Shown here: in pieces, positions 7,093-57,167 of the stretch
Layout of the letters: each line of letters starts with the position of its first letter
How positions within the stretch are numbered: position 1 is the stretch's first letter
Source of the DNA: an uncultured virus (IMG/VR IMGVR_UViG_3300012017_001157)
Lineage: Duplodnaviria > Heunggongvirae > Uroviricota > Caudoviricetes
DNA length: 64,000 nt
IMG/VR virus record: IMGVR_UViG_3300012017_001157
Location: 1-64,000 of that record
Strand: one strand, 5' to 3'
Notes under the pieces: model-generated
The model's input: only the letters and a program-made list of their open reading frames with translations
Databases searched by the model: none
Told to the model about the DNA's origin: nothing
Translations under genes and position numbers: made by a program

Positions 7093-7859
7093 TACTTAAA
7101 TTCCTTTTTTTGCCAGAAAAACCTTTTATATACCGAAGAAATATATGTGCTGAACACTCTTTGCTGATGATTGATTTTATCTAGATCCTCTGGGGTAGCC
7201 TCTGTTTCCAGTTGCCATGACTCTCTTTTAAACGGGAAAACCTGGACGACTGGTGTTCCGGCTGGGATAATTCCCTGCCAGTCCTCTTTCTCAACAACAA
7301 ATGGAAAATTAACAACATTTGTATAGGTATCAGTATCTACAACCCCTGGCAGGGCGGTAAAGAAACCATTCGGATTATTCATTGGTGGAATAAATAGTGT
7401 TGAATAACCAGGGGGCGTTACGATATGCCATGGGCTGATGTATTTAAAAACGTCGCGGTTCTGGTATTTCTTTGCTATTGGGTGTTCTTTTGCCTGACCG
7501 AACGAGTGCCCCTCCAGTTGCTTTCCCCCACTGATTCCTGGTCTCCAGGCTGTCCTGAATTGCGTTCCGGTATTTTCATTAGCCTCATTTTTAATAGCAT
7601 TTATCTCTACATAGATGTCCTGATCGGTAACCAAGACATATCCAAGGCTCATGCTATCCAGTATCGGTACACACCTTTTTATGGTGGAGTTGTAATCGCC
7701 ATCATTGCTCATTGACTTCTCGTCTGGCTTGGCCCCTCCCCATCCGCCATATGCAGGCATGTCTTTCCACCACTGAGGAATGTTTTTTCCAATCGGGGTC
7801 GGCCAGAACTCCTTGAGCACTGGTCTTTCAGCAATGAACTTAATGGTTTTATCGCTCAT
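7092..7859 (-). CDS. Conserved phage protein, paralog 3 of 3 (DUF6065-like)
   Basis: IPQWWKDMP, TIKRCVPILD, TPPGYS, AGTPVVQVFPFKRESW. Confidence 0.6.
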   Translation of the reverse strand: MSDKTIKFIAERPVLKEFWPTPIGKNIPQWWKDMPAYGGWGGAKPDEKSMSNDGDYNSTIKRCVPILDSMSLGYVLVTDQDIYVEINAIKNEANENTGTQFRTAWRPGISGGKQLEGHSFGQAKEHPIAKKYQNRDVFKYISPWHIVTPPGYSTLFIPPMNNPNGFFTALPGVVDTDTYTNVVNFPFVVEKEDWQGIIPAGTPVVQVFPFKRESWQLETEATPEDLDKINHQQRVFSTYISSVYKRFFWQKKEFK

Positions 7860-8420
7860 TTAGCGATCTACCTTTTGGTTAAGGATTGCTTTTATTTTTT
7901 CAATTTCACTTCTTAGCTGCTCAATTTCATTAGAGATATTTACGGCAAGTTCGGCTACGGCTGGATTTTCTTCCTTGCCGCAACCTTCGCATGCCTGCTT
8001 TTCTCCAGCCGCTGCCGACGCAGTGCTGGGCTGGTCGCCGCGAAGACCGGGCGACTTGCCGTATAGATCAGTCAGGCCCAGATTTGACTCAATTTCCGTA
8101 TCCATATCATTAGCCCACCCGACTACTCGATTAATCGGGCTGCCGTCCTGCGTCATGATAAGGACTGGAACACCAGTTACACCAGCAGAACCAGCAATTG
8201 ACGGACTTCGGTTTATATCAACAGCAAGGATGCTAAGTCCAACATCCTTATATTTTTCTTGAATTGCATCAATAAATGGGCTTGCGTCGTTGCAGAATTT
8301 ACAGGATTCAGAAGAGAAATAGTACAAAACGGAACCTAGGCTCCTGTTCTCGGACAAGAGCTTTGTCCATGGTGTTTCTTGAATTTGTGAGACCTCTGGC
8401 CTGTCAATGTACTGTGGCAC
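7860..8420 (-). CDS. Thioredoxin-fold protein with C-terminal extension
   Basis: CKFC active site, GVP cis-Pro motif. Confidence 0.75.
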   Translation of the reverse strand: MPQYIDRPEVSQIQETPWTKLLSENRSLGSVLYYFSSESCKFCNDASPFIDAIQEKYKDVGLSILAVDINRSPSIAGSAGVTGVPVLIMTQDGSPINRVVGWANDMDTEIESNLGLTDLYGKSPGLRGDQPSTASAAAGEKQACEGCGKEENPAVAELAVNISNEIEQLRSEIEKIKAILNQKVDR

Positions 8421-13080: not shown

Positions 13081-13292
13081 TATGCGCCTACCAATGCGCT
13101 GATCTCTTCGTCAGTAAGACCAAGAGCAGCCAGTTTAGCGCGTGCGGATTCCTTTGCGGCAATCTTGGCGTCCTCCTCTAGCAATCGGATGTTGAAAGAC
13201 GCTTGCAATTGGGCGGCCTCTTCTGCAGAAATTTCCTCTATTCTTTGCTCGCCAGTTTCACTATCAATTACAACTCTTTTCAAAGACATCAT
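13080..13292 (-). CDS. Small fibre-associated protein
   Basis: 70 aa ending SARAKLAALGLTDEEISAL, coupled between two fibre genes. Confidence 0.6.
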   Translation of the reverse strand: MMSLKRVVIDSETGEQRIEEISAEEAAQLQASFNIRLLEEDAKIAAKESARAKLAALGLTDEEISALVGA

Positions 13293-24627: not shown

Positions 24628-24703
24628 GCCGTCGTAGCTCAGTGGATAGAGCAAGGGACTTCTAAGCCTTTGGTCGCAGGTTCGATTCCTGTCGACGGCG
24701 CCA
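24628..24703 (+). tRNA. tRNA-Arg(UCU)
   Basis: Acceptor GCCGTCG/CGACGGC, D-arm TAGCTCAGTGGATAGAGC, anticodon loop CT-TCT-AA, GGTTCGATTCC, encoded CCA. Confidence 0.93.
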
Positions 24704-25738: not shown

Positions 25739-25780
25739 CTAAAGCTAGACCGTCAAATAACTTATACACACTTGTGTATA

Positions 25781-26791
25781 ATGCCGCCCATGAAGAGAAT
25801 TGTTGTGACCGGGGCTGGCGGATTTATCGGCGGCTGGCTTACTGCGCGCCTTGCGGCAAACCCAATGAACCACGTTGTAGCCGTGGACAAGAAGCCGCTA
25901 AAGGAATGGGAGCAGGAAAGCACCTCTGAAGTTGTTCCGGCTGCCGATCTTTCTAACCCAAATGTATGCAAACTGATTACCCGAGATGCCGACGAGGTTT
26001 ATAATCTTGCGGCAGACATGGGCGGGATGGGCTTTATCGAGCACCACAAGGCGGACTGCATGCTCTCAGTTCTTGTAAGCACGAACATGCTTGTTGCCGC
26101 CAAGGAGAACAACGTCAAGAGATTCTTCTATTCCTCAAGCGCGTGTGTGTACGCCGCAGACAAGCAGACCGACACAGATGTCACCGCGCTTAAAGAGGAA
26201 GACGCGTATCCTGCAATGGCTGAAGACGGATACGGCTGGGAAAAGCTTTTCTCGGAAAGAATGGCGCGACACTTCCGCGAAGACTATGGTCTCGAGACAA
26301 GGGTTGCGAGATACCACAATGTTTACGGTCCAAAGGGAACGTGGACTGGAGGCCGAGAAAAAGCGCCAGCAGCAATCTGCCGAAAGGTTGCCACCGCTGT
26401 AATCACCGGAAAAAACGAAATTGAAATTTGGGGCGATGGAGAGCAGACGCGTTCGTTTATGTACATTGATGATTGCGTTGACGGGACGATTAAAATTGCT
26501 CAGTCCGACATTGTAGAACCACTGAATCTTGGCTCATCAGAGCTTGTTTCCATAAACCAGTTAGTTTCTATCGTAGAAGACATCGCTGGTGTAAAACTGA
26601 AAAGAAGTTACAACCTTGACGCGCCAAAGGGAGTGCGCGGAAGAAACAGCGATAACACGAAAATTCAAGAACTGCTTGGCTGGCAACCATCAATATCTTT
26701 GCGTGACGGGCTGAAAAAGACATACGCGTGGGTTTATGACCAGGTTGCTGAATCGATTGCCAGCGCGAAAGAAAAGGAGTGTGGCTCATAA
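25781..26791 (+). CDS. NAD-dependent epimerase, GDP-mannose 3,5-epimerase-like
   Basis: VTGAGGFIG, NLAADMGGMGFI, SSSACVY, YGWEK, GGREKAPAA.CRK, GVRGRNSDN. Confidence 0.88.
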   Translation: MPPMKRIVVTGAGGFIGGWLTARLAANPMNHVVAVDKKPLKEWEQESTSEVVPAADLSNPNVCKLITRDADEVYNLAADMGGMGFIEHHKADCMLSVLVSTNMLVAAKENNVKRFFYSSSACVYAADKQTDTDVTALKEEDAYPAMAEDGYGWEKLFSERMARHFREDYGLETRVARYHNVYGPKGTWTGGREKAPAAICRKVATAVITGKNEIEIWGDGEQTRSFMYIDDCVDGTIKIAQSDIVEPLNLGSSELVSINQLVSIVEDIAGVKLKRSYNLDAPKGVRGRNSDNTKIQELLGWQPSISLRDGLKKTYAWVYDQVAESIASAKEKECGS

Positions 26792-27345
26792 TGGGAGAGA
26801 AGAGGCTTTCAATACTTATCCCGACGCTTCAAAAAAGAAGCAAGCTTTGCCAGGAGTTGACCGACGAGCTGACAAGGCAGTTGACCACCGAAGTCGAGTT
26901 TATGCTTCTCCCGGACGCTGGACAACGAACAATCGGAGAAAAAAGAAACGCACTTCTTGAGGCGGCCCAGGGCGACTATGTTGCATTTATTGATGACGAC
27001 GACATGATTAGCCCAGACTACATTGATAAGGTCATGAAGGCGCTTGAGGAGGACCCAGACTGCGCGTCCCTTACTGGCCTTATTTACCAGGGGAATTCTT
27101 CCCCGAGAACCTTTGTTCACTCCATCGACTACGAGGGTTGGTACACGAAGGATGGTATTGACTATCGATACCCAAATCACCTAAACGCCGTCAAGAAAAA
27201 GTATGCTCTGAAAGTTGGGTTCCCGGAAATTAACCACGGAGAAGACCGAGCCTACTCCGACAGAATTCAGCAGTATCTGAAGAAAGAATCAAAGATCGAG
27301 GGAGTGATTTATCACTACTACCCCGGCGGATCTAGGGAAAAGTGA
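26779..27345 (+). CDS. Glycosyltransferase family 2
   Basis: LSILIPT, IGEKRN.L...A.GDYVAFIDDDD, GED. Confidence 0.85.
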   Translation: MWLIMGEKRLSILIPTLQKRSKLCQELTDELTRQLTTEVEFMLLPDAGQRTIGEKRNALLEAAQGDYVAFIDDDDMISPDYIDKVMKALEEDPDCASLTGLIYQGNSSPRTFVHSIDYEGWYTKDGIDYRYPNHLNAVKKKYALKVGFPEINHGEDRAYSDRIQQYLKKESKIEGVIYHYYPGGSREK

Positions 27346-28034
27346 AACTTCTTATAAAGTTCCCAACCAGGCAAAGGCCAGCTCTTTTCTTTGAAACTCT
27401 TTCAAAATATATTTCGATGTCCTCTGGTCTTCACCAGATCGAATATGTCATTTCAATGGACGAGGATGATGTCAGCATGAACAATGAACAGGTAAGAGAT
27501 CGGCTAAACGGACTTATAGACGGCGGCGTTGACATTAAGTATTTTTACGGAAACTCAAAAACCAAAATTGAGGCGATTAACGCAGACATGGACAAGGCCA
27601 GCGATGATTGGGACATGGTGTTTAACGGACAGGACGACATGATCCCCACCGCGGAGGGGTACGACGACGTCATGCTCACGCGGCTCTTTGAACTGTTCCC
27701 CGACACCGATGGCGCAGTCTGGCTAAACGACCAGTACATGGGCTATGACGAAAACTGCACAATCGTTGCTGCTGGCCGAAAGTACTACGAGCGATTTGGG
27801 TATCTCTACTACCCGGGATATGACTCAGTCTTTGCTGACAACGAGTACACAGAGGTTGGGAAAGCGCTTGGAAAACTGGTTTATGTTTCTGACCGAGTTG
27901 TCAAACACGACTGGATTGGCAAGGACCAGTCTCTCGACCCGCTTCTCCGAAGAAACGAAGAGCCAACAAAGTACGCGGCTGACAGACTGATCTTTGAAGA
28001 CAGGAAATCAAAGGCCTTTCCTAAGGATCGCTAA
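27342..28034 (+). CDS. GT-A fold glycosyltransferase
   Basis: KFPTR.RP, K..AIN, DDM.P, G..YY.RFGY.Y.P.Y.S..ADNE. Confidence 0.75.
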   Translation: MKLLIKFPTRQRPALFFETLSKYISMSSGLHQIEYVISMDEDDVSMNNEQVRDRLNGLIDGGVDIKYFYGNSKTKIEAINADMDKASDDWDMVFNGQDDMIPTAEGYDDVMLTRLFELFPDTDGAVWLNDQYMGYDENCTIVAAGRKYYERFGYLYYPGYDSVFADNEYTEVGKALGKLVYVSDRVVKHDWIGKDQSLDPLLRRNEEPTKYAADRLIFEDRKSKAFPKDR

Positions 28035-30995: not shown

Positions 30996-31071
30996 GGGGA
31001 CGTAGCTCAACGGTTAGAGCACCGAGCTTATATCTCGGCGGTTCCTGGTTCGAGTCCAGGCGTCCCTACCA
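30996..31071 (+). tRNA. tRNA-Ile(UAU)
   Basis: Acceptor GGGGACG/CGTCCCT, anticodon arm CCGAG-CT-TAT-AT-CTCGG, GGTTCGAGTCC, encoded CCA. Confidence 0.92.
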
Positions 31072-33175: not shown

Positions 33176-33514
33176 ACCTCCTTACAGCCCGATAAACCAA
33201 AGCAGGAACCAACCCGCTCGCTTTGACCTTCGCCCCATGCGCCTTCGTGCCATTGCGTACCTCCTTGTTATTGCGCGCCGTCATTTGTGCGGCGTGAGCG
33301 GAGTATGGCACAGAAGTTATAAGGCGGTCAAGTTGGCCTACCGAAGTTCAGTTATTATTCGGGGGTCGTTTTGGGGGAGGACTTGACAAGATGTTTTTTT
33401 TGGGGTAGCCGAGCTTCCGCAGAAGCGAGGGTCGAACCCGAGGGCTTGACACAAGTTATAGCGATCGCTTACAATCCCCCTACGGCAGTTAGCCGTAGGC
33501 ATAAGGAGGAAGTT

Positions 33515-33847
33515 ATGGCAGTGGAAACAATCGCTCAGTTATTGAGCAGCAGAGATCAGTTGGTCAAGGAGCGACTCGGTTTGAGCCGCGACCAGATTGA
33601 ACGGCACTACCTTCGGACAGAAATGGTTGAACCGCTTATTGGCGCAACGATTATTGGGGGCACGGTGTTAGGCGATGGCGGTGCTGACCCCTACATGCCA
33701 GTGTTATTTGTAGAGCAGGGCGGCAAGCGTTATTCCCTTGTTATTTCATCTGATGATGAGGCGAACGATGGTGGTCGAATCTTCGTAGAGGGTGGACATG
33801 TTGTTATGACCCCTGATGGAGTTAGCGCAATGTCCTTCGATCGCTAA
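33515..33847 (+). CDS. Hypothetical protein, first plus-strand cassette
   Basis: TTGACA-18-TACAAT, 5' hairpin, AAGGAGG RBS. Confidence 0.75.
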   Translation: MAVETIAQLLSSRDQLVKERLGLSRDQIERHYLRTEMVEPLIGATIIGGTVLGDGGADPYMPVLFVEQGGKRYSLVISSDDEANDGGRIFVEGGHVVMTPDGVSAMSFDR

Positions 33848-33989
33848 AAACGCAAAATTTTAGTTCGCCCTCAACTGGCCGCGGCCAGTTGAGATAGAAC
33901 TCTGGCTGGCAACTTGACCGATGGCTAGAAGTTGCCTTACAATCTAGGGGCAGGGGCTTCCCTGTCTGTGATACAAGGAGGAAAGAAAG

Positions 33990-34802
33990 ATGCCTAACTG
34001 GTGTGTGAACCAAGTAGACATTAGCGGCGACGAAGCAGAGGTCGCAAGGTTGGTTGAGTTTGTGAAGGGCAGCGAGGGCGACTTCGACTTTGCGAAGATT
34101 GTGCCGCCACCCGATAGCAAGTTCTACGCAATCAACGAGGGTCAGAACGATTTCCAATGCGGCTGTAAGCAGGTGTGGGTTGAGCGAGATGACCTACCAG
34201 AAATCGTTTCGTACACCGATAACGACGGCAAAGATGTAATGCGAAAGCAGGGCGAGTGGTGCGTTGATGGTATTCCAGTTGTGAAGGAAGAATCAAGCAA
34301 CGGCACAATCCAAGATGATACCGCCCTGATGTTTGGCGGTACGCCAGTGTGTCCGATTCACAAGGTCAAGCAGAACTCATCGCACCCAGACTGGTGGTAC
34401 AACTGGAATGTTTCTAACTGGGGCTCCAAGTGGAACTGCGGTGAAGTATGGAGCGACCGCGGCGATGACGATAGCAAGATTGACGGAATCGTTTCGTACA
34501 ACTTTGATACGGCTTGGGCTCCTGCGGAGCCTGTGATTGCCGCGCTCGCCAAGCAGTTTCCAACGCTCGCAATCGCTCACCGATACTGCGAAGGCGGTAT
34601 GGGTTTCGCGGGTGAGATTGTGTACGAGAACGGAGAGGTTGTAAGCGTAAGTGATTACAACGCAGATGATTTGCCAGACGAAGCATGGCACAAGGGCGAG
34701 GACGACGAGATTGAGTACGGCGAGCGTGATTATGATGCCGTACCAATGAACGAGTTTGAGAAGTTCTGTGATAAACACTTCGGCGGCGTTGTCGGGGGCT
34801 GA
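33990..34802 (+). CDS. YubB/DUF1281-like ferredoxin-fold protein
   Basis: MPNWC.N, FDF.KIVP.P, WY.WN..NWG.KWN, FDTAW.P, Y.E.G..FAG. Confidence 0.8.
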   Translation: MPNWCVNQVDISGDEAEVARLVEFVKGSEGDFDFAKIVPPPDSKFYAINEGQNDFQCGCKQVWVERDDLPEIVSYTDNDGKDVMRKQGEWCVDGIPVVKEESSNGTIQDDTALMFGGTPVCPIHKVKQNSSHPDWWYNWNVSNWGSKWNCGEVWSDRGDDDSKIDGIVSYNFDTAWAPAEPVIAALAKQFPTLAIAHRYCEGGMGFAGEIVYENGEVVSVSDYNADDLPDEAWHKGEDDEIEYGERDYDAVPMNEFEKFCDKHFGGVVGG

Positions 34803-34994
34803 TTAGATACAGGGCTGATGAAATCACAGCGTTAGCCCGAGTGTGAATAAGCCTCGCCAGAAATGGCGGGGCTTATTTATTATTGTTCGCGCCCAGACAC
34901 CGGCGGGTGTCTGGGGTAGACCATTTGACAGGTCGCTATGACCCGTGAGAAAATCAAGTGGTCGGGGATTCCCGATAGAAAGTAAGGAGGCTGT

Positions 34995-35540
34995 ATGCCG
35001 CTCAACTGGTCAGTAAAAAATGTAAAGAACGCGGACGATGTTTGCTACCGAACGGCAACAAGGAGCAGCGCCCATGACGGCACGACTCGCGGTGAGGAGT
35101 ACCTTCATCCGATCACCAACTCGATTATCTGGCACACGATGAGCATTGGGCTCAACGAGATCACGCCAGAGAATCTTGACGAGTGGGAGAAGCGCATGGC
35201 GCTCGCTTACTCGGTCGCATGGATCGACAAGAGCGTTGTGTTTGCTGGGTATGAAGACGACGGAAACATCAAGTGTGCACCGCGCATGATTACCAGAGCA
35301 GACTTGGAGCAGCACATCGGACTGGAAACCAACGCTTCATACGAAACCGCTGGCGCTTGGCGCAAGCGCGTTATGGAGCGCATGGAGCATGAGGGTCTGA
35401 AAGAACTGAAATACGCAGAGGAGCACAACCCTGATCTCGACGCAATCACGCACAAGGAGAGCATCGAACTGCGCGACGCAATCCGAGCGGGAAAGATTAC
35501 AAAGGAAGAGGCTGCGCTGCCAGAGAATCAGCCAGTCTGA
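34995..35540 (+). CDS. Hypothetical protein
   Basis: Own promoter, AAGGAGG RBS and terminator (35561-35593). Confidence 0.8.
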   Translation: MPLNWSVKNVKNADDVCYRTATRSSAHDGTTRGEEYLHPITNSIIWHTMSIGLNEITPENLDEWEKRMALAYSVAWIDKSVVFAGYEDDGNIKCAPRMITRADLEQHIGLETNASYETAGAWRKRVMERMEHEGLKELKYAEEHNPDLDAITHKESIELRDAIRAGKITKEEAALPENQPV

Positions 35541-35702
35541 TCTTCGAGATCAAGTAATCAAGCGGGCCGCCTTCGGGCGGCTCGTTTGTTTTTGTTCTCG
35601 CCCAAGGAGCTGCGGCTCCTTGGGGTAGAACGCTTGACGGCTGGGCTTTGGGTATGCGACAATCCACTAGGCGGCACTTGCCGTTGTAGTAAGGAGGCTA
35701 AA

Positions 35703-36463
35703 ATGGCAGTAAGTTGGGACAAGGTTGAGGAGATGGTGGGAATCGCAAAGGGTATCGGCTTTGACGATTGCCACAAAATCTATGTTCTGCTTGACGACGC
35801 GCAGGTGGAGCAGATGAAGGAGTATGGCTACACGACGCTCATTGAGGCAAAAGATTCCGACCCTAACGAAATGTTGAGTACGATTATGGAGTGGTACGAG
35901 AACTCTTGCTCGCTGCGATTCGTTCAGGCGATTGCGACCGTACACCCAGACAAGAATCCTAACGATGGATTCTTCTCGTTGATTGAGCAGGGCGCAGAGT
36001 GGGAGGGCGACAATGAGTAAGTGGATCGTTGTCCTACAACACACTGGCTATCGCGAGTTTGAGGTGGAAGCCTTGGATCAGGGCGAGGCAGAGGGCAAGG
36101 CGTTTGAGTTGGCAGAGGAGCCAGCACCTTGGGACACTACGCCAGAGATTATTGTTTGGAGCGCGGAGGAGATTACCGATGAGCGGTGAACTTCACGCGT
36201 GTACGCGCTGCTCGGCTCCGCTTGTTTACTCCGATGAGAAAGTCATCGGTGCGTGGAACGGCGAGCCGAACACGCGCTTTGATGTTCTGGACTTTGATCA
36301 GTATGAGAGCGGTGTGCCAGAGGGTTATCTGGTTTACTGCTTGGACTGCGCTCCCTGCGAGTGTGAGTTTCACCCGCCATTTATGTCGGACGCGGAAGCG
36401 CGAGATGAAGGCTGGTGCTTTATCCCGAACTGCGACTTTGTAGAAGCGCACCGACACGCATAA
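35703..36463 (+). CDS. Three-gene cassette of small acidic hypotheticals (35703-36020, 36013-36189, 36179-36463)
   Basis: Overlapping starts and stops behind one promoter. Confidence 0.75.
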
Positions 36464-36581
36464 AGATAATAGTTCGGCTCCAAAGGGCCGCGGCCCTTTG
36501 GACTAGAACTTGACGCAATCTCGGGAAGTATGCGACAATCCACCTAGCGGCAGTTGCCGTTGAGAAAAAAGGAGGACGCAA

Positions 36582-37547
36582 ATGGCACACGAAGTAGAAA
36601 CGATGGCATACAACGCGGAAAGGGGCGCGCCGTGGCACAAACTCGGCGTTGCCAATAATGGACTCACAACGAGCGCGGAGATGATCGTTGCGGCTGGTCT
36701 TGATTGGGCAGTAAAGCAGCAACCGATCTTCACAACGCTTGACGGCAAGCAGATTGCGATCAACGGCAAGCGCGCAAATGTTCGCAGCACCGATGGTTCG
36801 GTCTTGGGCGTTGTCGGTGATCGCTACACGCCAATCCAGAACGACGAGATGATGTCGTTCGCGGACGCGTTGCTTGACGAGGGCGCACGCTACGAGTCGG
36901 CGGGTTCGCTCAAAGGTGGGCAGATCGTCTTCTCCGCGTTGGAGATTCCAGAGAAGATCAAGATCAAGGGCGACAATGGTGATACCAACACCTACCTTGT
37001 GATTGCCAATGGGCACAACGGCTTGTTCCCACTCAAAGCGATGATTACGCCAATCCGCGTTGTTTGTATGAACACGCTCAACGCAGCGTTGGGCAGCGCG
37101 AAGATGTCGTTCACACTTCGCCACACCGCGAAGATTGAGGAGAAAGTCGCAGAGGCGAAGCGCGCACTCGGACTTGCCGCAAGCGCGGTTGAGGAGTTTT
37201 CGGTCATCGGCTCGCGTATGATCGCGGAGAAGATGGATCGCGACGAAGCGTTCCGCGTGATTACGCGCATCTTCCCGCTGTCGGAGTCGGAGAAGCGTGA
37301 GAAGGAAGTAATGTCGGAGCGAGCGAAGGCAACAATCGCGATTCTCAATAACGCGGAGAATCTAGAAGGTTTGCGCGATACGAAGTGGGGCGTATACAAC
37401 GCCATCGCCGAGTATCTGGACTATGGCGTTTCGTATCGCGGCGGGGTACGCTCTTCTGCTTCGGACGCTCGTGCTTCTAGCGTAATGCTAGACACAGGTT
37501 TCGCAGCGAAGACAAAGCGCGAGGCAGTCCTCGCGCTTTCCCGATGA
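36582..37547 (+). CDS. DUF932 / TIGR03299-type phage-plasmid protein
   Basis: PWH.LG, AGLDW.V, Y.P.QN, AGSLKGG, TPIRVVC.NTL, T.WG.YNA..EY.D. Confidence 0.85.
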   Translation: MAHEVETMAYNAERGAPWHKLGVANNGLTTSAEMIVAAGLDWAVKQQPIFTTLDGKQIAINGKRANVRSTDGSVLGVVGDRYTPIQNDEMMSFADALLDEGARYESAGSLKGGQIVFSALEIPEKIKIKGDNGDTNTYLVIANGHNGLFPLKAMITPIRVVCMNTLNAALGSAKMSFTLRHTAKIEEKVAEAKRALGLAASAVEEFSVIGSRMIAEKMDRDEAFRVITRIFPLSESEKREKEVMSERAKATIAILNNAENLEGLRDTKWGVYNAIAEYLDYGVSYRGGVRSSASDARASSVMLDTGFAAKTKREAVLALSR

Positions 37548-37772
37548 TTGAGTTGTTTTGGGGCTTTCTTCTTCTGCTCGCTTCGTTTACATACGCAATC
37601 GTTAGCGAAGTAAGAAAGTAGCCCAAGAAAAACAAGCCCCCTTCGGGGGGCTTGTTTTTTGTTCAGCCCCAAATGGCCGCGGCCATTTGGGTTAGAACCC
37701 CTTGACGGCTGACGGCAAATCTGCTTACAATGGTGTTGCCCCGCTTGGGGTTTGTAATAAAGGAGGCTGGAA

Positions 37773-38419
37773 ATGGGATACGACATCTACTCGCTGCTAC
37801 CAGACCGAAAGGCTGCGGCTGAACACGCAAAGAAGCACCGCTCAATGTGGGTAAACGAGGACGGCTCGTATGACGAGAAGGCTCCCGATACGCTCTACTT
37901 CCGTCTGAACATCTGGGGTATGCCGATGTTGCGTGAGTTCCACGATGCGATTGGCTTTGACGAGGTGAACGAGAATCTACTTGATAATAGCGGCGAGGTC
38001 ATCAAGGACTATGAGTGCCGCGCACTCTCCGAGAAAATCGCGTCTATGAGCGATGAGCAAATCAAAAACGAAATGATTGCCATAATCGCAAACAATCCGT
38101 TTATGGACGACCACACGAAGGCGTTCCCAAGCGAGGAGGCGACTTCGTGGGTTGGTCTTATCCGAGAGTGGCAGGCGTTCTTGGAGAAGTGCGCTGACCT
38201 GAAAGGGTGTGAGGTATTGTGAGCCGCCTATTCCCCACATCTAAACGAAAGCCCTGCGACTGCCCGATGGATAGGCGGGAAGAGCATTGGCTTTGGTCTG
38301 ACTGCGACAAGCATTTAGAGGACTGCTATGTGGTGTGGTGTCAAGAGTGCGACATCTACTCGGCAGACTGCGATAACGGAGGATTGACTTGGCGTGAAAT
38401 CCCAAGCGACTGGAAGTAA
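37773..38419 (+). CDS. Two-gene cassette of hypotheticals (37773-38222, 38219-38419)
   Basis: MGYDIY...YFRLNIW family-type start; second ORF Cys-rich. Confidence 0.75.
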
Positions 38420-38538
38420 ATAAATAGTTCGCCCCCAGATGGCGGCGGCCATCTGGGATAGAACCTCTTGACGGATAGAAGCAAGTGGATTTACAATAGG
38501 GCTACCCCGCTTGGGGTGCTGCGAACAAGGAGGCAACA

Positions 38539-39032
38539 ATGGCGTACCTACAAGGCTCAATGACGATGTGTGGCAACGGAGATTGCTACTACGACCAATG
38601 CGAGTGCGAAACGCACGACCACCCGCTCGTTCAGGAGTGCGAGGGCGAGGAAGTGCTGCGACTTGATAAGCGTTGCCCATTTGAGGGCAAGGAGCGAAAG
38701 TTCCCCTATGGCTGGAACGGCGCAGAATACGCCTATGATGAAGTTCGTAATCTCTGCGATGACTGCTATGGTGCGCTTTAATGAGCGACCACTTTGAGAT
38801 TCCTGTTGGCGACCAGCAAGAAGCCGACGAGCGGACGCACCCCTGCGGCGATTGCGGTGAGGTCGTTGAGGATTGGTATCTTGCCGACAACAACTCCTCT
38901 GGGACGCTGCGAGTCTACTGCGGAAAGTGCGAGGAACACCGATCAGACAAGTACGGCTGCGCGATGATTCTTTCCGAAGGCGTGATGTGCCAAGACGGAG
39001 CGTGCGGCTGCGGCGGGACTGGCGTGTATTGA
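38539..39032 (+). CDS. Two small Cys-rich (Zn-binding) hypotheticals (38539-38781, 38781-39032)
   Basis: Multiple CxxC motifs; TAATG coupling. Confidence 0.7.
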
Positions 39033-39153
39033 GCAATAAATAGTTCGCCCCCAAGCACCCGCGGGTGCTTGGGCTGGAACATTTGACGGACAGCCCGAGG
39101 TATGGGACAATCCGATTGTCGGAAGTACCGACGCTGCGAATAAGGAGGAATGT

Positions 39154-39420
39154 ATGTCAACACCGATCGCTTGGCAGTTTGACGCTTCCGTTCATTGCCT
39201 AGCCTGCGCGAAGGCACGCTTCGGCGATACGCTTGACAGCGAAGACACGAAGGATAACGAGGGCAATAATCTTCACCCTGTCTTTGACTGGGACGAAGTA
39301 AACTGGTGCGGTGAATCTTGTGGGACTTGCCTTGAGTGGGCGATTGATCCCGTTGATCACGAGCCGTTCAGTTGCCTGCTAGGATACGACTGCCGCAAGC
39401 CACAAGCCGCGGCACTATGA
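39154..39420 (+). CDS. Small Cys-rich hypothetical
   Basis: HC..CA...D.EGN..HPVF...C..C; own promoter and RBS. Confidence 0.75.
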   Translation: MSTPIAWQFDASVHCLACAKARFGDTLDSEDTKDNEGNNLHPVFDWDEVNWCGESCGTCLEWAIDPVDHEPFSCLLGYDCRKPQAAAL

Positions 39421-39612
39421 CTACGGCGTAGGATAGAGCCTCCCCTACGCCCCAACAGAGGGATCAAGTTGATCGCAGCCAACTTGATCCCTCTTTTTTG
39501 TTCGCCTCAAACGGGCCGCGGCCCGTTTGACTAGAACCTCTTGACGACCTAGTGGTCGCTGTTGTACCCTTGTCTTGCGGCGAAGTAGTGCCGCAGAAAG
39601 AGGAGGCAAGAA

Positions 39613-40175
39613 ATGGGAAAGGGAGATAAGTCCGACTTCGCGGACTTCTCGTTCGTAAGCGAGGGAAGGATTGCCCTCATCACCCCACTCACAGCAGAGG
39701 CTCGCTCGTGGCTGCGCGATAGGGTGGACTCGGAGGCGACCTATTGGGGTCAGGCTCTTGTCGTTGAGCCGCGCTATGCCGAACCGATTCTGGAAGGAAT
39801 CGCGGCAGACGGATTCTCCGTTCTGGGTTGCGTATGAGCAGGGAAGACGCAGCCTTCTACACCTATCACGAGGACGACGAGGCGATCAAAGACCTCGGCG
39901 ACTATCTGGTGTTCAGGTGTGGCGTGATGAACATTAGGTACAAACGAGATAATGGGCAGTTTGTCCATCTTCGCACGACGAGGGACTTGGAAGATGTCGG
40001 CATAGACTCCGACGAGAAACTCGCAGAGGCGGAGAAAGACATTGAGCGATTTGAGTGGATAAATAACTCGTGGTTTGAGTTGATCCACAAATCCGAACTA
40101 GGCGAAGGATACGAACACCCTGTCTTCTATTCGTTGAGCGACGCAATCGCTTCCGCAGAAGCACCAGCAAACTAA
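39613..40175 (+). CDS. Two hypotheticals (39613-39837, 39834-40175)
   Basis: AGGAGG RBS; ATGA coupling. Confidence 0.75.
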
Positions 40176-40268
40176 ATAAATAGTTCGGCTCCAATCACCC
40201 GCCGGTGATTGGAATGGAACTGAAATAGGTGCTTGACAGGTCTGGCGAGGGTGTGGGAGAATCCCCTT

Positions 40269-40497
40269 GTCGGAAGCGATTCTAGATGAAGCGACACCGA
40301 CTAGGTGAGACTCTGGACGAGCGAGCAGATGCCGCAGCCAAAAAATGCGGGTATAGAGACGCAAAGGACGATGACCGCTAGGTGCCAATGGATCGGCGGA
40401 GCGGAAGGAAAAGGAGTCGGGGGAAGTGATTAGCCCCCGATGAATAATCCGAAACGAGACCCCCAGAGCGACGGCTCTGGGGGTTTCGTGCTTTATT
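40269..40497 (+). ncRNA. Putative non-coding RNA cassette (about 230 nt)
   Basis: Type-A element, TTGACA-18-GAGAAT promoter and terminator, but no AAGGAGG-ATG; only a 31-codon ORF (40286-40381) lacking a clear RBS. Confidence 0.5.
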
Positions 40498-40609
40498 AGG
40501 TTCAGCTGGAACAGGCGGCGGCCTGTTCCAATAGAACCTCTTGACACCTTGCAAGAAGTTTGATTACAATGGGTTCACCCCACTTGGGGCGGTAGCAGAG
40601 GAGGCTAAA

Positions 40610-40948
40610 ATGTTCAAGGCTCTGGCAGTTTCACTCAAGGCAAGCGACTTCACGAAGTTCCAGTGCTCGCAGGGCACTTGCGAGGGCGATTGGCTCGTTG
40701 AGCCAAATGTCGCTTCTCGTCTTGACGGATACGATCTGAAGTTCGCTGAAATCTACGGCGATATGTTGGATGGGTTCGCTCAGCCAGACGAGATGATCTC
40801 AACTGAACTTGATGGGACTTACGACAGGTTCGGCAACATCGTCGTCCACTGGCGCAACGATGGATTCATTGACTTCGTTGCCTTCTCAGAGGCGTGGGCA
40901 GCCGAGCGCGAGATGGCTGACATCATCGCGCTCCACCAAGCCGAGTAG
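40610..40948 (+). CDS. Acidic hypothetical protein
   Basis: Own promoter, RBS and cUUCGg terminator. Confidence 0.75.
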   Translation: MFKALAVSLKASDFTKFQCSQGTCEGDWLVEPNVASRLDGYDLKFAEIYGDMLDGFAQPDEMISTELDGTYDRFGNIVVHWRNDGFIDFVAFSEAWAAEREMADIIALHQAE

Positions 40949-41096
40949 TCCAGAAAGCAAAGATGCCGCCTTCGGGCGGCATTTTTGTTCGGCTCCAAGT
41001 GGCCGCCGCCACTTGGAATAGAACCCTTGACGGCTGGCTAGGTGTTCGCTTAGAATCGGAGTACCCCGATTGGGGCAGAGTAGCAAGGAGGCAGAA

Positions 41097-41378
41097 ATGA
41101 GCAAGGCAATCAAGTTGGCAGAGGCAGCCGAAATGATTCGCAGCAGCAACGGCGCAATCTTCGGCGTGGACTTCGTGAAGCGCACGACGGGCGAGGTTCG
41201 CAAGATGACGGCGCGGCTCGGAGTCAAGAAGCACCTCAAAGGTGGCGAGGCTGCGTATGACGCGGCGGCGAAAGACCTCATCTTCGTCTACGACATCACC
41301 AAGAAGGCGTATCGTTCGGTTGCGCTTGACGCAATCACGGCGGTTCGCTTTGGCGGCGAGGTCTACGAAGTCAAGTAA
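41097..41378 (+). CDS. SH3/WYL-like beta-barrel protein (DUF2693-like)
   Basis: F.V.FVK..GE.R.M.ARLGV...VYD....YRS..L..I pattern. Confidence 0.6.
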   Translation: MSKAIKLAEAAEMIRSSNGAIFGVDFVKRTTGEVRKMTARLGVKKHLKGGEAAYDAAAKDLIFVYDITKKAYRSVALDAITAVRFGGEVYEVK

Positions 41379-41502
41379 TCCGACGGAGGTCTGGGCAAGA
41401 AGGGCGAGGGCAACCTCGCCTTTTTTGTTCACCTCACACGGGCCGCGGCCCGTGTGATTAGAACTCTTGACGACAGAATAGAAGTCTGCTTATAATCAAG
41501 TA

Positions 41503-41715
41503 TCGGGTCGTGAGGAGACGACTAGTTGGTGGTAAGAATAACCACCCGAGACGATAAGACTGGCGGGCTTTGGCATTGACCAGCAGGGGTGCCGCCAGTA
41601 GTGGACTAGCGAAAGCGAAAGTCCACCTTCGCAAGAGGATAAGCGTCAATGCCGCGAAAGGGTTGGGGGGGTCGCAACTTGGGGGTGGTTCCCCTAGGCG
41701 ACTCCCCTTCATTTT
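41503..41715 (+). ncRNA. Putative structured non-coding RNA with pseudoknot (about 210 nt)
   Basis: TTGACG-18-TATAAT promoter, no RBS-linked ORF, consecutive hairpins with GNRA loops, loop GGCATTGAC complementary to downstream GTCAATGCC, terminal stem plus T-tract. Confidence 0.7.
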
Positions 41716-41828
41716 GTTCTGCTCCAAGTTGCCGCGGCAACTTGGATTTGAACCCTTGACAGGTCTGGAACTTATCGCGTAAGATTCTGGTGTCGGGGCT
41801 TCCCGATGAGTAGCAAGGAGGCAAGAAA

Positions 41829-42236
41829 ATGGGCAAGGCAATCAAGTTCGGAGTCGGGGCGTTTGAGGCTGGTGCGCCAACTCCCGCGCTGTTCAACTGG
41901 GTTGAGGTCGTGGACTTCAACGATGACGGCAACACGCTCACCGAACTCTACCGCGTGGGCGAGTGGGACATGACGGAGGTTGCGGTTTCTGGTAAGTATG
42001 GCGCAACGAGCGTCGTGCTCTGGTGCGATGAGGAGGGTCTCTACAACGAGCCAGTCCTCCGCAATCATGCGGCGACATCACTCCGCAACGAAATCCTGCG
42101 CGGATACGCTGACCCGATCTACGGCAACTGCGTACTCACCGCAGAGGACGAGGACGGCAAGACGCTCGCGCTCACCGATGAACAGGCTGCGGAAATCAAG
42201 ACGCTGCTAGAACTGGGCAACTACCCAATCAAGTAG
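41829..42236 (+). CDS. DUF3846-like protein
   Basis: LWCDEEGL...N..AT...I.GN.VL...D.DG...LT.EQ. Confidence 0.7.
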   Translation: MGKAIKFGVGAFEAGAPTPALFNWVEVVDFNDDGNTLTELYRVGEWDMTEVAVSGKYGATSVVLWCDEEGLYNEPVLRNHAATSLRNEILRGYADPIYGNCVLTAEDEDGKTLALTDEQAAEIKTLLELGNYPIK

Positions 42237-42403
42237 CGCGCACAAAATCGGGAACGACAACGGCGGGGAGAAATCCCCGCCGTTGTTTCTTTGTGGAGCT
42301 CCAACCTGCCGCGGCAGGTTGGAATAGAACACTTGACGAGCGGCTAGGAGTTCGCTTAGTATTCAGGGGCGGGGACTTCCCGCTAGGTAGCAAGGAGGCA
42401 AAA

Positions 42404-42733
42404 ATGAGCGAAGGCTACAATGGCTGGACGAACTGGGAAACTTGGGTCACCAATCTTTGGATTGAGGAGGGGCTGCTTGACCTCTTTGAGGTTGGCGAGC
42501 AGGCGCGCCACTTTGCAGAAACCAACGATAGCGACGGAAACTTCGCAGCCTATGAAATGGGGAGGTGGATTCGCGAGCAGGTTGAGGAGTTCATCGGCGA
42601 GCAGCCCGCGGGACTCGTTGCGGACTTCGTGGGCGGTTGTCTCTCGTCGGTGAACTGGACGGAAATCGCGAGCCATCACACGGACGAAGCGATTCGCAAC
42701 GAGCAGGAGCAGACGGCGAACGCGGAAGCGTAA
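42404..42733 (+). CDS. Conserved phage hypothetical (YNGWTNWETW family)
   Basis: YNGW.N.ETW..NLW...VNW.EIA. Confidence 0.75.
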   Translation: MSEGYNGWTNWETWVTNLWIEEGLLDLFEVGEQARHFAETNDSDGNFAAYEMGRWIREQVEEFIGEQPAGLVADFVGGCLSSVNWTEIASHHTDEAIRNEQEQTANAEA

Positions 42734-42865
42734 ACGAAAGCGGCAGGATTTTAGGTCGGCTCCACCCTGCCGCGGCAGGGTGGAATAGAACGCTTGACAA
42801 CCAAGCGGGAGTTCGCGTAGTATTGCCTTGCGGCACCTGCCGTAGAGGTAGCATAAGGAGGCAAG

Positions 42866-43150
42866 ATGTTTGGAGGGGACTTCGGTATCCAGGCAACCTA
42901 TGTGACGCGGTTCGTATCCACACCAGGGCACGGATACCTCGTAGCGGAGAAGGCAATGCTTCGCACGCTTGGTATCGCGGACAAGGTGAGCAACTGCTCG
43001 TATGAGCGCAATGGTAGCGTCTACCTAGAAGAAGATTGCGATGCGCCTCTCTTCATCGCGGCGATGGAGAAGAAGGGATTCTCGGTTTCATACAACTCGG
43101 TCAATGTTGATGATGAGTTCATTGACAAGATGGACTACTATCGCGGATAG
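42866..43150 (+). CDS. Conserved phage hypothetical (PGHG...YLEEDCD family)
   Basis: Motif pattern; own promoter, RBS and terminator. Confidence 0.75.
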   Translation: MFGGDFGIQATYVTRFVSTPGHGYLVAEKAMLRTLGIADKVSNCSYERNGSVYLEEDCDAPLFIAAMEKKGFSVSYNSVNVDDEFIDKMDYYRG

Positions 43151-43329
43151 CGCGCACAATCGTTAGCAACACACCAGCGGGATGCTACCCCCGCTGGTGT
43201 TTTCTTTTGTTCGGCTCTCGTGCGCCGCGGCGCACGAGACTCTCCCGAAACTAGGGGCTTGACGGATTGGAAATGGCGACTCTATGATGGGGCTACCCCG
43301 CTTGGGGTGGTAGCAATAAGGAGGCAGAA

Positions 43330-43539
43330 ATGTTCAGGTGCGATTGGTGCAGCGAAACAATCACCAGCGAGGACGGCAAGTGGACGGACGAGTTCAGCGG
43401 AGTCTGGTACCACGACTATTGCGGTAAGGAGTTCCGCGACGAACTCCGCGCTGAGGCAGCCGCGCTGCTTGGCGACAAGGACGCGATGATGTACGAGGAC
43501 GATTGGGACGGCTCGCAGTACCTCTGGGATAGGCGATAA
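43330..43539 (+). CDS. Small hypothetical, last plus-strand cassette
   Basis: CDWC...H..C; own promoter and RBS. Confidence 0.7.
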   Translation: MFRCDWCSETITSEDGKWTDEFSGVWYHDYCGKEFRDELRAEAAALLGDKDAMMYEDDWDGSQYLWDRR

Positions 43540-43760
43540 CTAACTAGCCCCCGCAGGTCTGGGACTTGCGGGGGCATAACATTTGTGGGGGCATTACGGG
43601 CCGCGGCCCGTAATGTTGGAACTTATATTATTCCCCGTTTATATTATTTATGTTATTTACTTATCACTTGTGTGTTAGACATCTAACAACAGCACCCAGG
43701 GTGCTGCGATAGAGCCTCCCCCCGACCACCGCGCCTGCGGCGATCGGGGGGAGGACTCCG

Positions 43761-44940
43761 TTAGCGCCAGCCGTCCTCGTGCTGCGTCAACGGATCGGTT
43801 TCATCTTCGCGCTTCGACGCGTAATCCAGGTTGCGCTCCTTTCGATCTTCCTCGTCGCGCTGCCACTCTTCTTCGCGCTCCTCGACGCACTCCTCGCAAA
43901 GAATCGCGTCGAAGTCGCTGTGCGGCTCAACGCTCGACAAAGCGCTTGTTCCGCAATCCTCACACTCGACGCAATCGTCGCAAAGCATTTGCTCGATCGT
44001 TTCGCGGAAAGAAACTTTCGCCGCGTGCGGAGTGCCTTCATCGATTCCGCAATCCTCACATCGCTGCTCGTCAATGCAGCATTGTTTGCAATCTCCTTTC
44101 TTCGTCATCTCGCATTGTCCGTGTGCTTCACACTCAAACATCGTGAACCTCCAATGCTGTTGCGAGGTGCGAGCGCCGCGCGCCCGCACCCCGCTGTGAT
44201 TACGCGTTAGCAGCGTCGCGCTGCTTCGCTGTTGCTTTCGCAACCGACTTCATCGCGCTTGCAAGTTTCGCTTGCAGCGCGCTCGTGTTCTCCTCGAAGT
44301 ATGCGAGCGTTGCCGTTGCCGTTGCGAGTGCCGCTTCCGACTTCGCAACCAACTTCTTGTTTGGCTTCGACTCGATCGCAAGTTCCACGAGTGTTGCGCG
44401 CTCAAACTCGACAACATCGGCAGCAAGCGCGCGCTGCTCAATGCTGCGTGCAAGCAACTTGTTGATCACGCCGATCGACTCCGTTGCTGTGCGCTTTGTT
44501 TGCTTTGCTTTCTTGCTCATTGTGCTGTCCTCCAAACTTGTGGAGTGTGGAAGCGCCGCGCGCTTCCACACTCCTTTGCTTCACTCAACGACGCAGGTTT
44601 CTGCTTGGTCGATGTAGATGTCCATACGCGTTGCAACCGCGTCGCAATCCGCGCACTCCCATCGACCGAGAGCAGCAATCTCCTCGTCGTGCTCGTCGCG
44701 ATGCTGCGACAACCACGCGGCAATCTCTCCCGCGTAGTCGTGCGGCGATTCGATTGCGTCGACCGCGTGGTCGGCGGTGTCGAGCGTTCGCGCAAACTCG
44801 ACAACATACTCGTTGAGAAGTTGCGCGTACGCCACACGCGCTTGCAGCGAGTTGCTGCGATTCTCAACAAACTTCCAATGGTGCGTGGTGAGTTGAGCAC
44901 CACGCTCCAACAAGATTGCGATGCGCTTCATCGCTCCCAT
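43761..44940 (-). CDS. Three-gene minus-strand cassette (43761-44141 Cys-rich acidic, 44200-44520 Ala/Lys-rich helical, 44581-44940)
   Basis: Each has a GGAGG RBS and a preceding hairpin. Confidence 0.75.
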
Positions 44941-56294: not shown

Positions 56295-57167
56295 TTATTT
56301 TTCCCAGTCAGGCCAAAGGTCTTTCTTCAGTGCCGGGACCAGATTGTACAGCTCTTTTCTCTTTTCGGGAATCTGCTGCGGGTGGCTCTCCCACTTATCG
56401 CACAGTTCCTTGAATTCGCAGTTTGCATGCGCAAACGCCGTTGGGTTCGGATAGATCGCGCCCTTCTCGATTGCGTCAAGGAACGCGCGAGCCCCGATGT
56501 ACATCTTGTCAATATCTTCCTGAGTGCGGGTAGTGGTTCTTCGATCAACATTCACGCCCTTAGCCGAGTTGCTAATGATATTGAATGTCACCGATGGGTC
56601 GTGGTCATAGTTTTGGCGAACAGCATTCACATAGGCGGTTGCCTGAATGTCTCCGCGCTCTCGATCCTTCTCCCACCTTCTCTGTGCGGTCTTGTGCTCG
56701 ACTACGCGGAGATCTGTGGTGAGCATGTCGAGATTTGTCTTCAACTTCATCGGAAGCTTCCCAAGTTTAGAGTGGGAAATCTCCGACATCATTGAGTGCT
56801 CAACATACTTTGCAGTCCAGTCGTCGCCCTCAAGAACAGCAGCCCGAAGCATCTCTTCGCCACTAAAGCCCTCGCTAAGGATATCGCGCTCTTTTTCTGC
56901 GCCCCAGTCCACCTGCGCCGACTCTATTGACCAAACTTTTCGATAGTGATCGAACACCGGCGTAAGGTCGCCATTTCGCTTGCCGCCCGTAATGGGCTCG
57001 TACCATCGCTGAAGTCCGGCGTGGACCGAGGTGCCCAGGGCGAAGTACGCCGTCGTCCTGTTGGTCCACATACCGAGCCGATACTTGTACCACCAGCGAA
57101 GTGGGCACGAAAGGAATTCGCGCAACTCACTTACACTGATGTGCTGCGGGTTTCTCTCCTCAATCAT
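56295..57167 (-). CDS. PD-(D/E)XK exonuclease (RecB-like)
   Basis: S.S....CP..W...Y, G..VH, D....V.EHKT, Q..AY, C-terminal C....C. Confidence 0.8.
   Translation of the reverse strand: MIEERNPQHISVSELREFLSCPLRWWYKYRLGMWTNRTTAYFALGTSVHAGLQRWYEPITGGKRNGDLTPVFDHYRKVWSIESAQVDWGAEKERDILSEGFSGEEMLRAAVLEGDDWTAKYVEHSMMSEISHSKLGKLPMKLKTNLDMLTTDLRVVEHKTAQRRWEKDRERGDIQATAYVNAVRQNYDHDPSVTFNIISNSAKGVNVDRRTTTRTQEDIDKMYIGARAFLDAIEKGAIYPNPTAFAHANCEFKELCDKWESHPQQIPEKRKELYNLVPALKKDLWPDWEK

Follow-up and report, generated by a model that had tools for sequence, protein, structure and literature searches.

A 38-bp palindromic DNA element that follows each early-gene cassette in a clade of lake phages, compared with PeSL modules and other hairpin-forming sites

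Integron attC sites lie at the 3' ends of gene cassettes and are hairpins conserved in structure, in which short conserved core motifs stand at the base of the stem and a spacer is left unpaired. The REP/BIME sequences (repetitive extragenic palindromes and bacterial interspersed mosaic elements) are enterobacterial palindromes of about 35–40 bp that follow genes in co-directional intergenic regions and are capable of forming hairpins, and the early promoters of phage N4 are hairpins with 5–7-bp stems and 3-nt loops that supercoiling extrudes from the DNA for the virion RNA polymerase to read; they provide the precedent for extrusion of such small hairpins in vivo. Here we describe a 38-bp palindromic element that punctuates an array of small gene cassettes in the genome of an uncultured tailed phage (IMG/VR record IMGVR_UViG_3300012017_001157); the window is the first 64 kb of this 73,042-bp genome (G000, called W in the comparisons below). 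The closest described system is that of the promoter early stem-loops (PeSLs) of the T4-type phages RB49/phi1, PST/T4 and nt-1/KVP40 (PMC2839356, PMC4122927). As presented in PMC2839356, PeSLs are small intergenic modules that combine a strong σ70-like early promoter with a stem-loop and include an upstream A/T stretch, the preceding gene's stop codon and the Shine-Dalgarno (SD) sequence of the next, and the present locus resembles them in all of these features. It also resembles them in that the insertions, deletions and replacements that distinguish relatives join at the modules, in hyperplastic regions ahead of small variable genes of mostly unknown function.

What is new relative to the PeSLs is a fixed geometry and place, independence of terminators, a palindrome with a flipping loop inside a conserved frame, and an unrelated clade. 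The stem-loops of PeSLs can occupy any of five positions with respect to the promoter and often consist of polyG/polyC (PMC2839356), whereas the element described here has a fixed geometry (10 bp plus a 4-nt loop) and a fixed place upstream of the -35 box, forms a perfect palindrome framed by GTTC and GAAC, and is separate from, and additional to, canonical terminators. The phage itself is not T4-like; it encodes an SU10-type capsid protein, and the best match of its TerL among isolated phages is 28% identical. Terminator activity and mini-circles are reported for PeSLs in these papers, while the present element is known from its sequence. It lacks the defining features of attC sites, intrinsic terminators, RNase III sites, N4 promoters and REPs. 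We tentatively read it, with a probability of about 40%, as a PeSL-like DNA boundary or joint of early-gene cassettes that would serve as a hairpin-capable insulator beside supercoil-sensitive σ70 promoters.

A scan for perfect hairpins with 10-bp arms and a 4-nt loop found 17 sites in the array and no further copies anywhere in the whole 73,042-bp genome. This reproduces the positions and arms given in the original prediction, a sequence-only annotation of the window: all 17 stems are perfect over 10 bp, and no two elements have identical arms within this genome. The pattern GTTC-N30-GAAC has 13 matches in the window against 1.2 expected, with none of 100 shuffles reaching 13; twelve of the matches are elements and the thirteenth, at 60237, is not a hairpin. 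The outer tetranucleotide is degenerate in the five elements at 34885 (GACC), 42293 (GTGG), 42754 (GGTC), 43209 (3' TCCC) and 43585 (GTGG), and the loop is NGCS in all 17. The central 24 bp form a perfect inverted repeat inside a conserved 38-bp frame, which reads A/T tract, GTTC-RSC, YCCAA-NNN-GC, 4-nt centre, mirror arm, NTA-GAAC. In the arms, whose consensus is YCCAA-NNN-GC, free variation is confined to about five positions, and about 24 of the 38 positions of the element are conserved as sequence, so that its description as sequence-variable is not supported.

The whole array spans 33446..43622 on the plus strand and consists of 17 units, each with a promoter, a hairpin in the 5' untranslated region (5'UTR), at least one SD-led gene or else a non-coding transcript, in some cases an intrinsic terminator, and finally the 38-bp element. 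Inspected by eye, the sequence upstream of the element contains an intrinsic terminator hairpin with a T-run in about 11 of the 17 cases and a stop codon with a short A/T tract in the other six; a run of at least five A/T bases directly precedes the element, with positions -5 to -1 at least 95% A/T over 100 contexts. Downstream come a linker, TTGAC(G/A), a spacer, a -10 box, a small 5'UTR hairpin, AAGGAGG and ATG. A -10 box of the form TAnnnT or GAnAAT follows TTGAC(G/A)-N18 behind 16 of the 17 elements, and the linker from the element to the -35 box measures 0–3 nt in 13 of these 16 and 12–13 nt in the other three; the claim that the element lies just before the -35 box therefore stands for 16 elements and fails for the one at 43585, which has no promoter behind it. 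The first array promoter (33446..33475, plus strand, TTGACA-N18-TACAAT, followed by a 5'UTR hairpin and an SD sequence) has no 38-bp element upstream. The first promoter likewise has no element in the relatives A, E, L054 and L056, and promoter-less terminal orphan elements were found in A, B, C, D, E and L056. With a first promoter that has no element and a last element that has no promoter, the element follows every transcription unit (17 units, 17 elements) instead of preceding every cassette as had been proposed. Because the terminal orphans still retain GAAC, this flank belongs to the element and not to the promoter.

The element is present in seven IMG/VR contigs and twelve lake metagenome contigs, all from one phage clade. 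A pattern scan of IMG/VR returned five contigs with 4–11 matches each and 27 loci with a single match, of which one proved to be a further relative and the other 26 were chance matches with no hairpin; a protein-led scan added the seventh contig. The twelve metagenome contigs were found with a strict sub-pattern, which had no match in prokaryotes when one genome was searched for each of 185,579 species. The stretch is contained in 20 DNA runs from 12 studies, all of them freshwater or lake, with no RNA run listed, and DNA contigs of four runs (X1, X3, X10 and X15) were used for comparison. Two complete relatives, each of about 85 kb, again have their elements in a single array, of 16 and 19 sites. 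A search for distant relatives with the DUF932 protein gave 79 loci, and the element occurs only in the five at 84% identity or more; relatives found in this way at 64–65% and 40% identity have neither the element nor the consensus promoters. The same is true of G001 (L146), a more distant relative that is 80% complete (TerL 72% identical). Its counterpart early genes are separated by plain polyG/polyC hairpins with 10–11-bp stems and GCAA-type loops (1531–1558, 7138–7161, 7530–7553 and 13247–13269), which stand directly before the SD sequence without promoters, an operon-style layout instead of a cassette layout. Comparison of gene presence and absence between the element-bearing W, G004 and G005 and the element-free G001 left dozens of candidates and no clear reader gene. 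No isolated relative was found by megablast, and distant blastn matches were limited to short tail-fibre pieces. The literature searched, which did not extend to bioRxiv supplements, held no description of the element.

In order to examine covariation we collected copies with a central GC and at least eight of ten arm pairs, which gave 163 copies, 94 of them distinct, with 59 distinct arms. Watson-Crick pairs account for 938 of the 940 arm pairs in the distinct copies, the exceptions being one G.T and one A.C. All ten inner pairs vary on both sides, and 99.9% of cells are paired. Compensated cells number 278 against 69 ± 8 in shuffles, none of 500 shuffles reaching the observed value, and pairing falls to 27–48% in slid controls. 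As this collection had itself demanded at least eight pairs, copies were collected again by GAAC plus promoter alone, with no pairing asked: 144 of the 151 copies so obtained have at least nine of ten pairs, and the other seven are the first-cassette promoter or chance matches within genes. Dropping the loop requirement added ten copies in L019, with loops TCCG (7), CGAG (2) and CTCG (1), for a total of 104 distinct copies, of which 102 are perfect. The maintenance of the 10-bp arm pairing through two-sided changes, as originally noted, is thus borne out. The outer GTTC/GAAC helix and the 3x3 mismatch fared differently. None of its four pairs covaries and 29 cells are unpaired; GTTC varies (it is kept in 77 of 94 copies) while GAAC stays (93 of 94), and the 3+3 flank positions are seldom complementary, being Watson-Crick in 17, 7 and 4 of 94. 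A 4-bp outer stem with a 3x3 internal loop is therefore unsupported as structure, and these parts are better described as conserved asymmetric sequence flanks.

The loops behave differently from the arms. When this genome was compared with four near-identical relatives whose cassettes differ by 3–5%, the arms showed one compensated change per comparison (0.6% per site), while loop positions 18 and 21 differed at 24–29% in the three comparisons spanning 16–17 elements. The change is an exact reverse complement of the loop, ggcg against cgcc, at the three elements at 34885, 40183 and 40987, and paired loop changes recur in contigs from independent runs (38444 with 38447, 41004 with 41007). Among the 94 distinct copies the loops are mainly CGCG (32), GGCG (30) and CGCC (25); GGCC occurs in none, against about eight expected from the marginals, so that nearly every centre has CCGC/GCGG on one strand. 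Restriction-site avoidance was considered as the cause of the missing GGCC loops and rejected, CGGCCG being only mildly depleted (5 against 13.6). Inversion of the spacer combined with homogenisation of the arms has been described as the signature of polymerase template switching in short inverted repeats (PMC8604942, PMC8794818). The arrays' own RNA hairpins provide the contrast: the intrinsic terminators have loops UUCG (8, against no CGAA), GAAA and GACG that are never flipped, and contain 74 G.U in 774 predicted pairs, and the 5'UTR hairpins contain 152 G.U in 895. The loop flips, the near-absence of G.T and the neighbouring UUCG and GAAA terminators point to a DNA palindrome homogenised by template switching and not to an RNA stem. 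On balance, the palindrome is maintained as DNA, and it is probably read as DNA.

An RNA-level element, namely a fail-safe terminator or pause site, a 3'-end protector or a processing-nuclease target in read-through transcripts, for which the hairpins between T7 early genes are a precedent, is unlikely on this evidence. It would agree with the finding that one element ends every transcription unit, always in the sense orientation, and with the stable fold of the 38-mer as RNA (-19 to -27 kcal/mol); moreover, 40 of the 94 distinct upstream flanks have no canonical terminator, the L019 loops are biased in orientation (TCCG seven times, its flip CGGA never), and G001 has its plain intercistronic GCAA-loop hairpins in the corresponding early region. 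In 54 of the 94 flanks, however, the element stands behind a terminator whose U-tract ends at the element, and what follows the element is NTAGAAC with no U-tract (93 of 94), unlike the true terminators with their T-runs just upstream. One G.U in 940 pairs compares with about 10–17% in the arrays' own RNA hairpins, and the loops are not of RNA tetraloop types and flip. RNase III requires about two turns of double-stranded RNA, whereas only a 10-bp helix is supported here, the outer helix needed for such a length being the part that does not covary. Rfam gave seven weak matches, all below the gathering scores.

The individual sites, all on the plus strand, illustrate these patterns. Element 1 (33863..33900) reads GTTC gcc CTCAACTGGC cgcg GCCAGTTGAG ata GAAC with the -35 box 13 nt downstream, and its loop base 33883 is C in runs X3, X10 and X15. 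Element 2 (34885..34922) has arms CCCAGACACC, loop ggcg and 3' GACC, with the -35 box 2 nt downstream; its loop is cgcc in E, L056 and L054. Element 3 (35594..35631) has arms CCCAAGGAGC and loop tgcg. Element 4 (36472..36509), with arms TCCAAAGGGC and loop cgcg, directly abuts the -35 box (0 nt) before the DUF932 gene, and L056 and L054 show a compensated arm change there from AAGGGC to AATGGC. Element 5 (37661..37698; arms CCCAAATGGC) comes directly after a terminator at 37628–37659 and its T-run. In element 6 (38427..38464; arms CCCAGATGGC, loop ggcg) positions 38444 and 38447 are both altered in runs X1 and X3, flipping the loop to cgcc. Elements 7 (39043..39080) and 8 (39500..39537) have arms CCCAAGCACC and TCAAACGGGC. 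Element 9 (40183..40220; arms TCCAATCACC, loop cgcc) lies 12 nt ahead of its -35 box and heads a cassette without an SD sequence; the loop is ggcg in E, L056 and L054. Element 10 (40500..40537) has arms TGGAACAGGC and loop ggcg, and element 11 (40987..41024) has arms TCCAAGTGGC and loop cgcc, which is ggcg in E, C, L056 and L054 and in runs X1, X3 and X15 through 41004 and 41007. Element 12 (41427..41464; arms TCACACGGGC) is absent with its cassette from the contigs of two runs. Element 13 (41716..41753; arms TCCAAGTTGC) carries a compensated change of TTGC to TCGC in E and C. Element 14 (42293..42330) has 5' GTGG and arms TCCAACCTGC, element 15 (42754..42791) has 5' GGTC and arms TCCACCCTGC, and element 16 (43209..43246) has arms TCTCGTGCGC, 3' TCCC and the -35 box 12 nt downstream. 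Element 17 (43585..43622), the terminal orphan, has 5' GTGG, arms CATTACGGGC and 3' GAAC and is followed by an A/T-rich tract with no promoter; its arms are identical in relative D.

Across the relatives the spacer separating the -35 box from the -10 box is 18 bp in 67 of 75 scored promoters, compared with the usual optimum of 17, and long spacers make promoters favour negative supercoiling. The linker between element and -35 box is 0–4 nt in 65 copies and 12–14 nt in 10. According to the boundary reading, the palindrome would be read as DNA, either as an extruded hairpin or cruciform or by a protein that recognises its shape together with the GAAC flank. Extrusion would be driven by the negative supercoiling that builds up behind each strong promoter, and the element would then insulate the tandem strong units from one another, both topologically and transcriptionally. 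By calculation, the 24-nt core folds as DNA with about -10.8 kcal/mol while the 24-bp duplex is worth about -37 kcal/mol, so that about +15 kcal/mol is needed to extrude the duplex as two hairpins, any penalty for the junction not included, and by our own estimate this would be reachable only at high negative superhelicity. The likeness to N4 lies in short G+C-rich DNA hairpins in a phage early region, where N4 function needs both structure and host gyrase; the N4 hairpin, however, is itself the promoter, whereas the present one has a 10-bp stem and a 4-nt loop upstream of an ordinary σ70 promoter, and the PHROGs and Pfam scans found no phage RNA polymerase. A wider role as structure-read DNA signals, that is, N4-like hairpins extruded under supercoiling from gyrase or transcription, through which some phage or host protein gates ordinary σ70 early promoters and insulates tandem units, or by which an unrecognised recombinase moves cassettes in integron fashion in a virulent phage, seems to us rather unlikely.

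A strong DNA-gyrase site after each unit, similar to those of REP/BIME-2 or to phage Mu's strong gyrase site (SGS), would remove positive supercoils and recharge the next promoter, and the 18-bp promoter spacers would suit it. In PMC6379681, an enrichment of gyrase sites is described downstream of operons with high transcription and within REPs that form hairpins, and the 38-bp length, two-fold symmetry and 4-bp centre of the element match the 36-bp central gyrase motif and 4-bp staggered cut reported there. Scored with the E. coli matrix of that paper (sheet DS10), the 17 elements reach on average the 47th percentile with 130 columns and the 75th with the central 36, with 10 of 17 above the genome's 90th percentile in the latter case. 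The matrix is from E. coli, and the host of this phage is probably another species; perfect arms, moreover, are unnecessary for gyrase. We regard a gyrase site as very unlikely. The element and REPs are alike in size, position and hairpin capacity, and REPs are linked to DNA topology through gyrase binding (PMC6379681), but the element has no GTAG head and no RAYT transposase, its strict sub-pattern is absent from the species genomes searched, its arms vary from copy to copy, it lies flush with a promoter, and it gives no clear signal with the E. coli gyrase matrix.

Families of cassettes occur in different order in W, A, B, D and L019. Six pairwise blastn comparisons gave 148 high-scoring segment pairs (HSPs), of which 54 start within -15 to +9 of the first base of an element and 26 end at +38 to +50, just beyond GAAC-NN-TTGAC; by our own estimate, chance would place a few per cent in such windows. 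Relatives thus differ by reordering, gain and loss of cassettes, with block edges at the element, in support of the earlier reading. In the contigs of runs X10 and X15, element 12 and its 251-nt cassette are precisely absent, the joint running from 41422 to 41712 with 289 nt skipped and with eight shared letters (a T-run plus GTTC). W and E have unrelated cassettes at the 41427 slot, and E, C, A, B and D carry a different non-coding cassette of about 280 nt in place of 41465–41715. A record in X10 that appeared to run backwards (36562 to 35703) is due to two cassettes with similar promoter and UTR and was set aside. Under the boundary reading, the conserved frame would supply short homology for cassette swaps by the phage exonuclease, probably with an annealase, or by host machinery. 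Exchange at a conserved repeat, as in PeSLs, fits the joints, and no dedicated recombinase is required for it.

As in integron arrays, a single site stands at the 3' end of every cassette, so that the first cassette has no site in front of it and the last has one behind it; conserved tetranucleotides and a 3+3 unpaired spacer flank a hairpin of constant shape; cassettes change position among relatives; and one cassette with its element is precisely lost in two runs. All of this would be expected if the element were a dedicated recombination site where the folded single strand is bound by an unrecognised recombinase or an enzyme of the host, which excises or inserts whole cassettes. Such a site is quite unlikely for several reasons. 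Comparison of 59 proteins with PHROGs and of 80 with Pfam revealed no family of tyrosine or serine recombinases, HUH enzymes, transposases or RNA polymerases, in agreement with the earlier statement that no recombinase is recognisable. Integron cassettes differ from the present ones, which have their own promoters. The motif order is GTTC...GAAC, the reverse of the attC order R''(RYYYAAC)...R'(GTTRRRY); the stems have no bulges or extrahelical bases; and the outer pairing does not covary. To our knowledge no attC site is as short as 38 bp. The contigs of the four runs contain no circle-type joint, the eight-letter deletion joint fits microhomology exchange, and the strict sub-pattern has no match in the 185,579 species. 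The proposal of structure-read, site-specific recombination is not supported, since exchange at a conserved repeat by homology or microhomology would account for the joints equally well.

Several observations weigh against the boundary reading and have to be set beside the evidence in its favour. Template switching can homogenise arms, so that compensation alone is no proof of selection on structure, and with the flips at saturation between close relatives it might by itself keep the arms perfect; it may do so without any selection on structure at all. The earlier claim of a DNA structure under selection therefore survives in its preference for DNA over RNA, given the flips, the single G.T in 940 pairs and the non-RNA loops, but not in taking selection as the sole cause of compensation. 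BLAST extends through any conserved repeat, and block edges at the element are accordingly no proof of an exchange site. Arm differences between orthologous elements average 3.0 where both flanks match (n = 7), 2.9 with only the upstream flank matching (n = 42) and 3.2 with only the downstream flank (n = 57), compared with 4.1 for non-orthologous elements (n = 1737); the arms are near saturation, and their link to the upstream and to the downstream cassette is weak and equal, so that the position of the crossover cannot be located. The terminator-less flanks (40 of 94) speak against a purely DNA-level role, and the TCCG bias in L019 indicates that loop orientation is not always neutral. The G+C-rich centre (GC-NGCS-GC) disfavours nucleation of a cruciform. 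Finally, with about 24 of 38 positions conserved and with conserved GTTC/GAAC flanks that do not covary, the element looks more like a protein site than like pure structure.

These last features would suit a duplex operator, in which a dimeric or tetrameric protein reads the dyad blocks GTTC, YCCAA, central GC, TTGGR and GAAC on double-stranded DNA upstream of the -35 box. Such a protein might act as an early shut-off repressor of the phage, as a global regulator of the KorB/ParB kind or as an activator from the host, and the symmetry of the uncontacted NNN positions would then be a by-product of template switching. The poor prospects for extrusion, the saturation of loop flips in close relatives, which suggests that arm homogenisation may be fast, the two linker classes (0–4 and 12–14 nt) one helical turn apart, and the two ParB_N proteins and the HTH_3 protein encoded in the genome are all consistent with an operator. 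On the other hand, the arm is exactly 10 bp and never reaches the 3+3 flanks, whose asymmetry (RSC against NTA) is kept; the conserved blocks are about 7–8 bp apart, which is not the helical repeat; the promoter-less terminal orphans retain the full frame; no more than about three cassette families account for the long-linker class; and no candidate protein is tied to the site. A duplex operator is for these reasons a doubtful alternative.

The remainder of the genome is that of a tailed phage with terminase, portal, SU10-type capsid protein and tail fibres, the largest open reading frames (ORFs) being a 1099-aa tail fibre and the 717-aa portal. It also encodes ThyX, MazG, SSB, a DnaC-like loader and a glycosyltransferase cluster in addition to the ParB_N and HTH_3 proteins; its recombination genes comprise a PD-(D/E)XK exonuclease (56295–57167) and the SSB. 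The gene set, including MazG and ThyX, has a cyanophage-like flavour. The glycosyltransferase clusters lie at 1166–8420 and 25772–28034, together with a 2OG-Fe(II) oxygenase, methyltransferases, a thioredoxin and a sugar epimerase, and the first is mostly missing in G004, G005 and G001. tRNA genes at 24628–24703 and 30996–31071 correspond to tRNA-Arg(TCT) and tRNA-Ile(TAT). In the whole genome the palindromes GGATCC, GCCGGC and GCTAGC do not occur, against about 7–8 expected for each, and CCGG, CTAG and AGCT are at about half of expectation, which suggests restriction avoidance. The contig starts (window 1–100) within a tandem repeat of about 12 bases with GCTCTGGCGTGG-like units. Since the complete relatives are 83–85 kb with terminal repeats, the 73-kb record may be incomplete.

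Within the array, the proteins mostly have no family or belong to DUFs, with Api92-like DUF1281_C, DUF932, DUF3846 and DUF7249 as the exceptions. A 5'UTR hairpin lies a few bases past the -10 box of every array promoter (33476–43330; for example 33946–33967, 36551–36562 and 37738–37749). These hairpins vary in sequence, have loops that are mostly GCUU, ACUU or GACUU with frequent G.U pairs, are followed by a strong AAGGAGG, and are probably 5'-end stabilisers of the mRNA. The cassettes at 40221–40499 and 41465–41715 have a promoter and a terminator but no SD sequence before their short ORFs and are candidate small RNAs; the first is kept in relatives and has a fold z of -5.4. After the last element, 43623–43700 is an A/T-rich tract with repeated TTATATTATT-like words, and a hairpin with a 15-bp stem is found at 44542–44574, where the plus-strand array meets minus-strand genes. 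Tract and hairpin could represent an origin or a bidirectional stop.

The clade provides a natural test case, in which 104 distinct copies of a palindrome of fixed geometry stand beside true RNA hairpins, the terminators and 5'UTR stems, that serve as internal controls. It illustrates that "compensatory" pairing close to perfection, accompanied by inversion of the loops, can arise at the DNA level and is not necessarily a sign of RNA structure. If the palindrome is read as structure, it would link DNA topology to the expression of early phage genes by the host RNA polymerase and would carry the concept of mobile regulatory joints, known from PeSLs, over to a new phage clade found widely in lakes. 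Should it be a conserved joint and nothing more, it would still account for the reshuffling of probable host-takeover and anti-defence genes in this clade.

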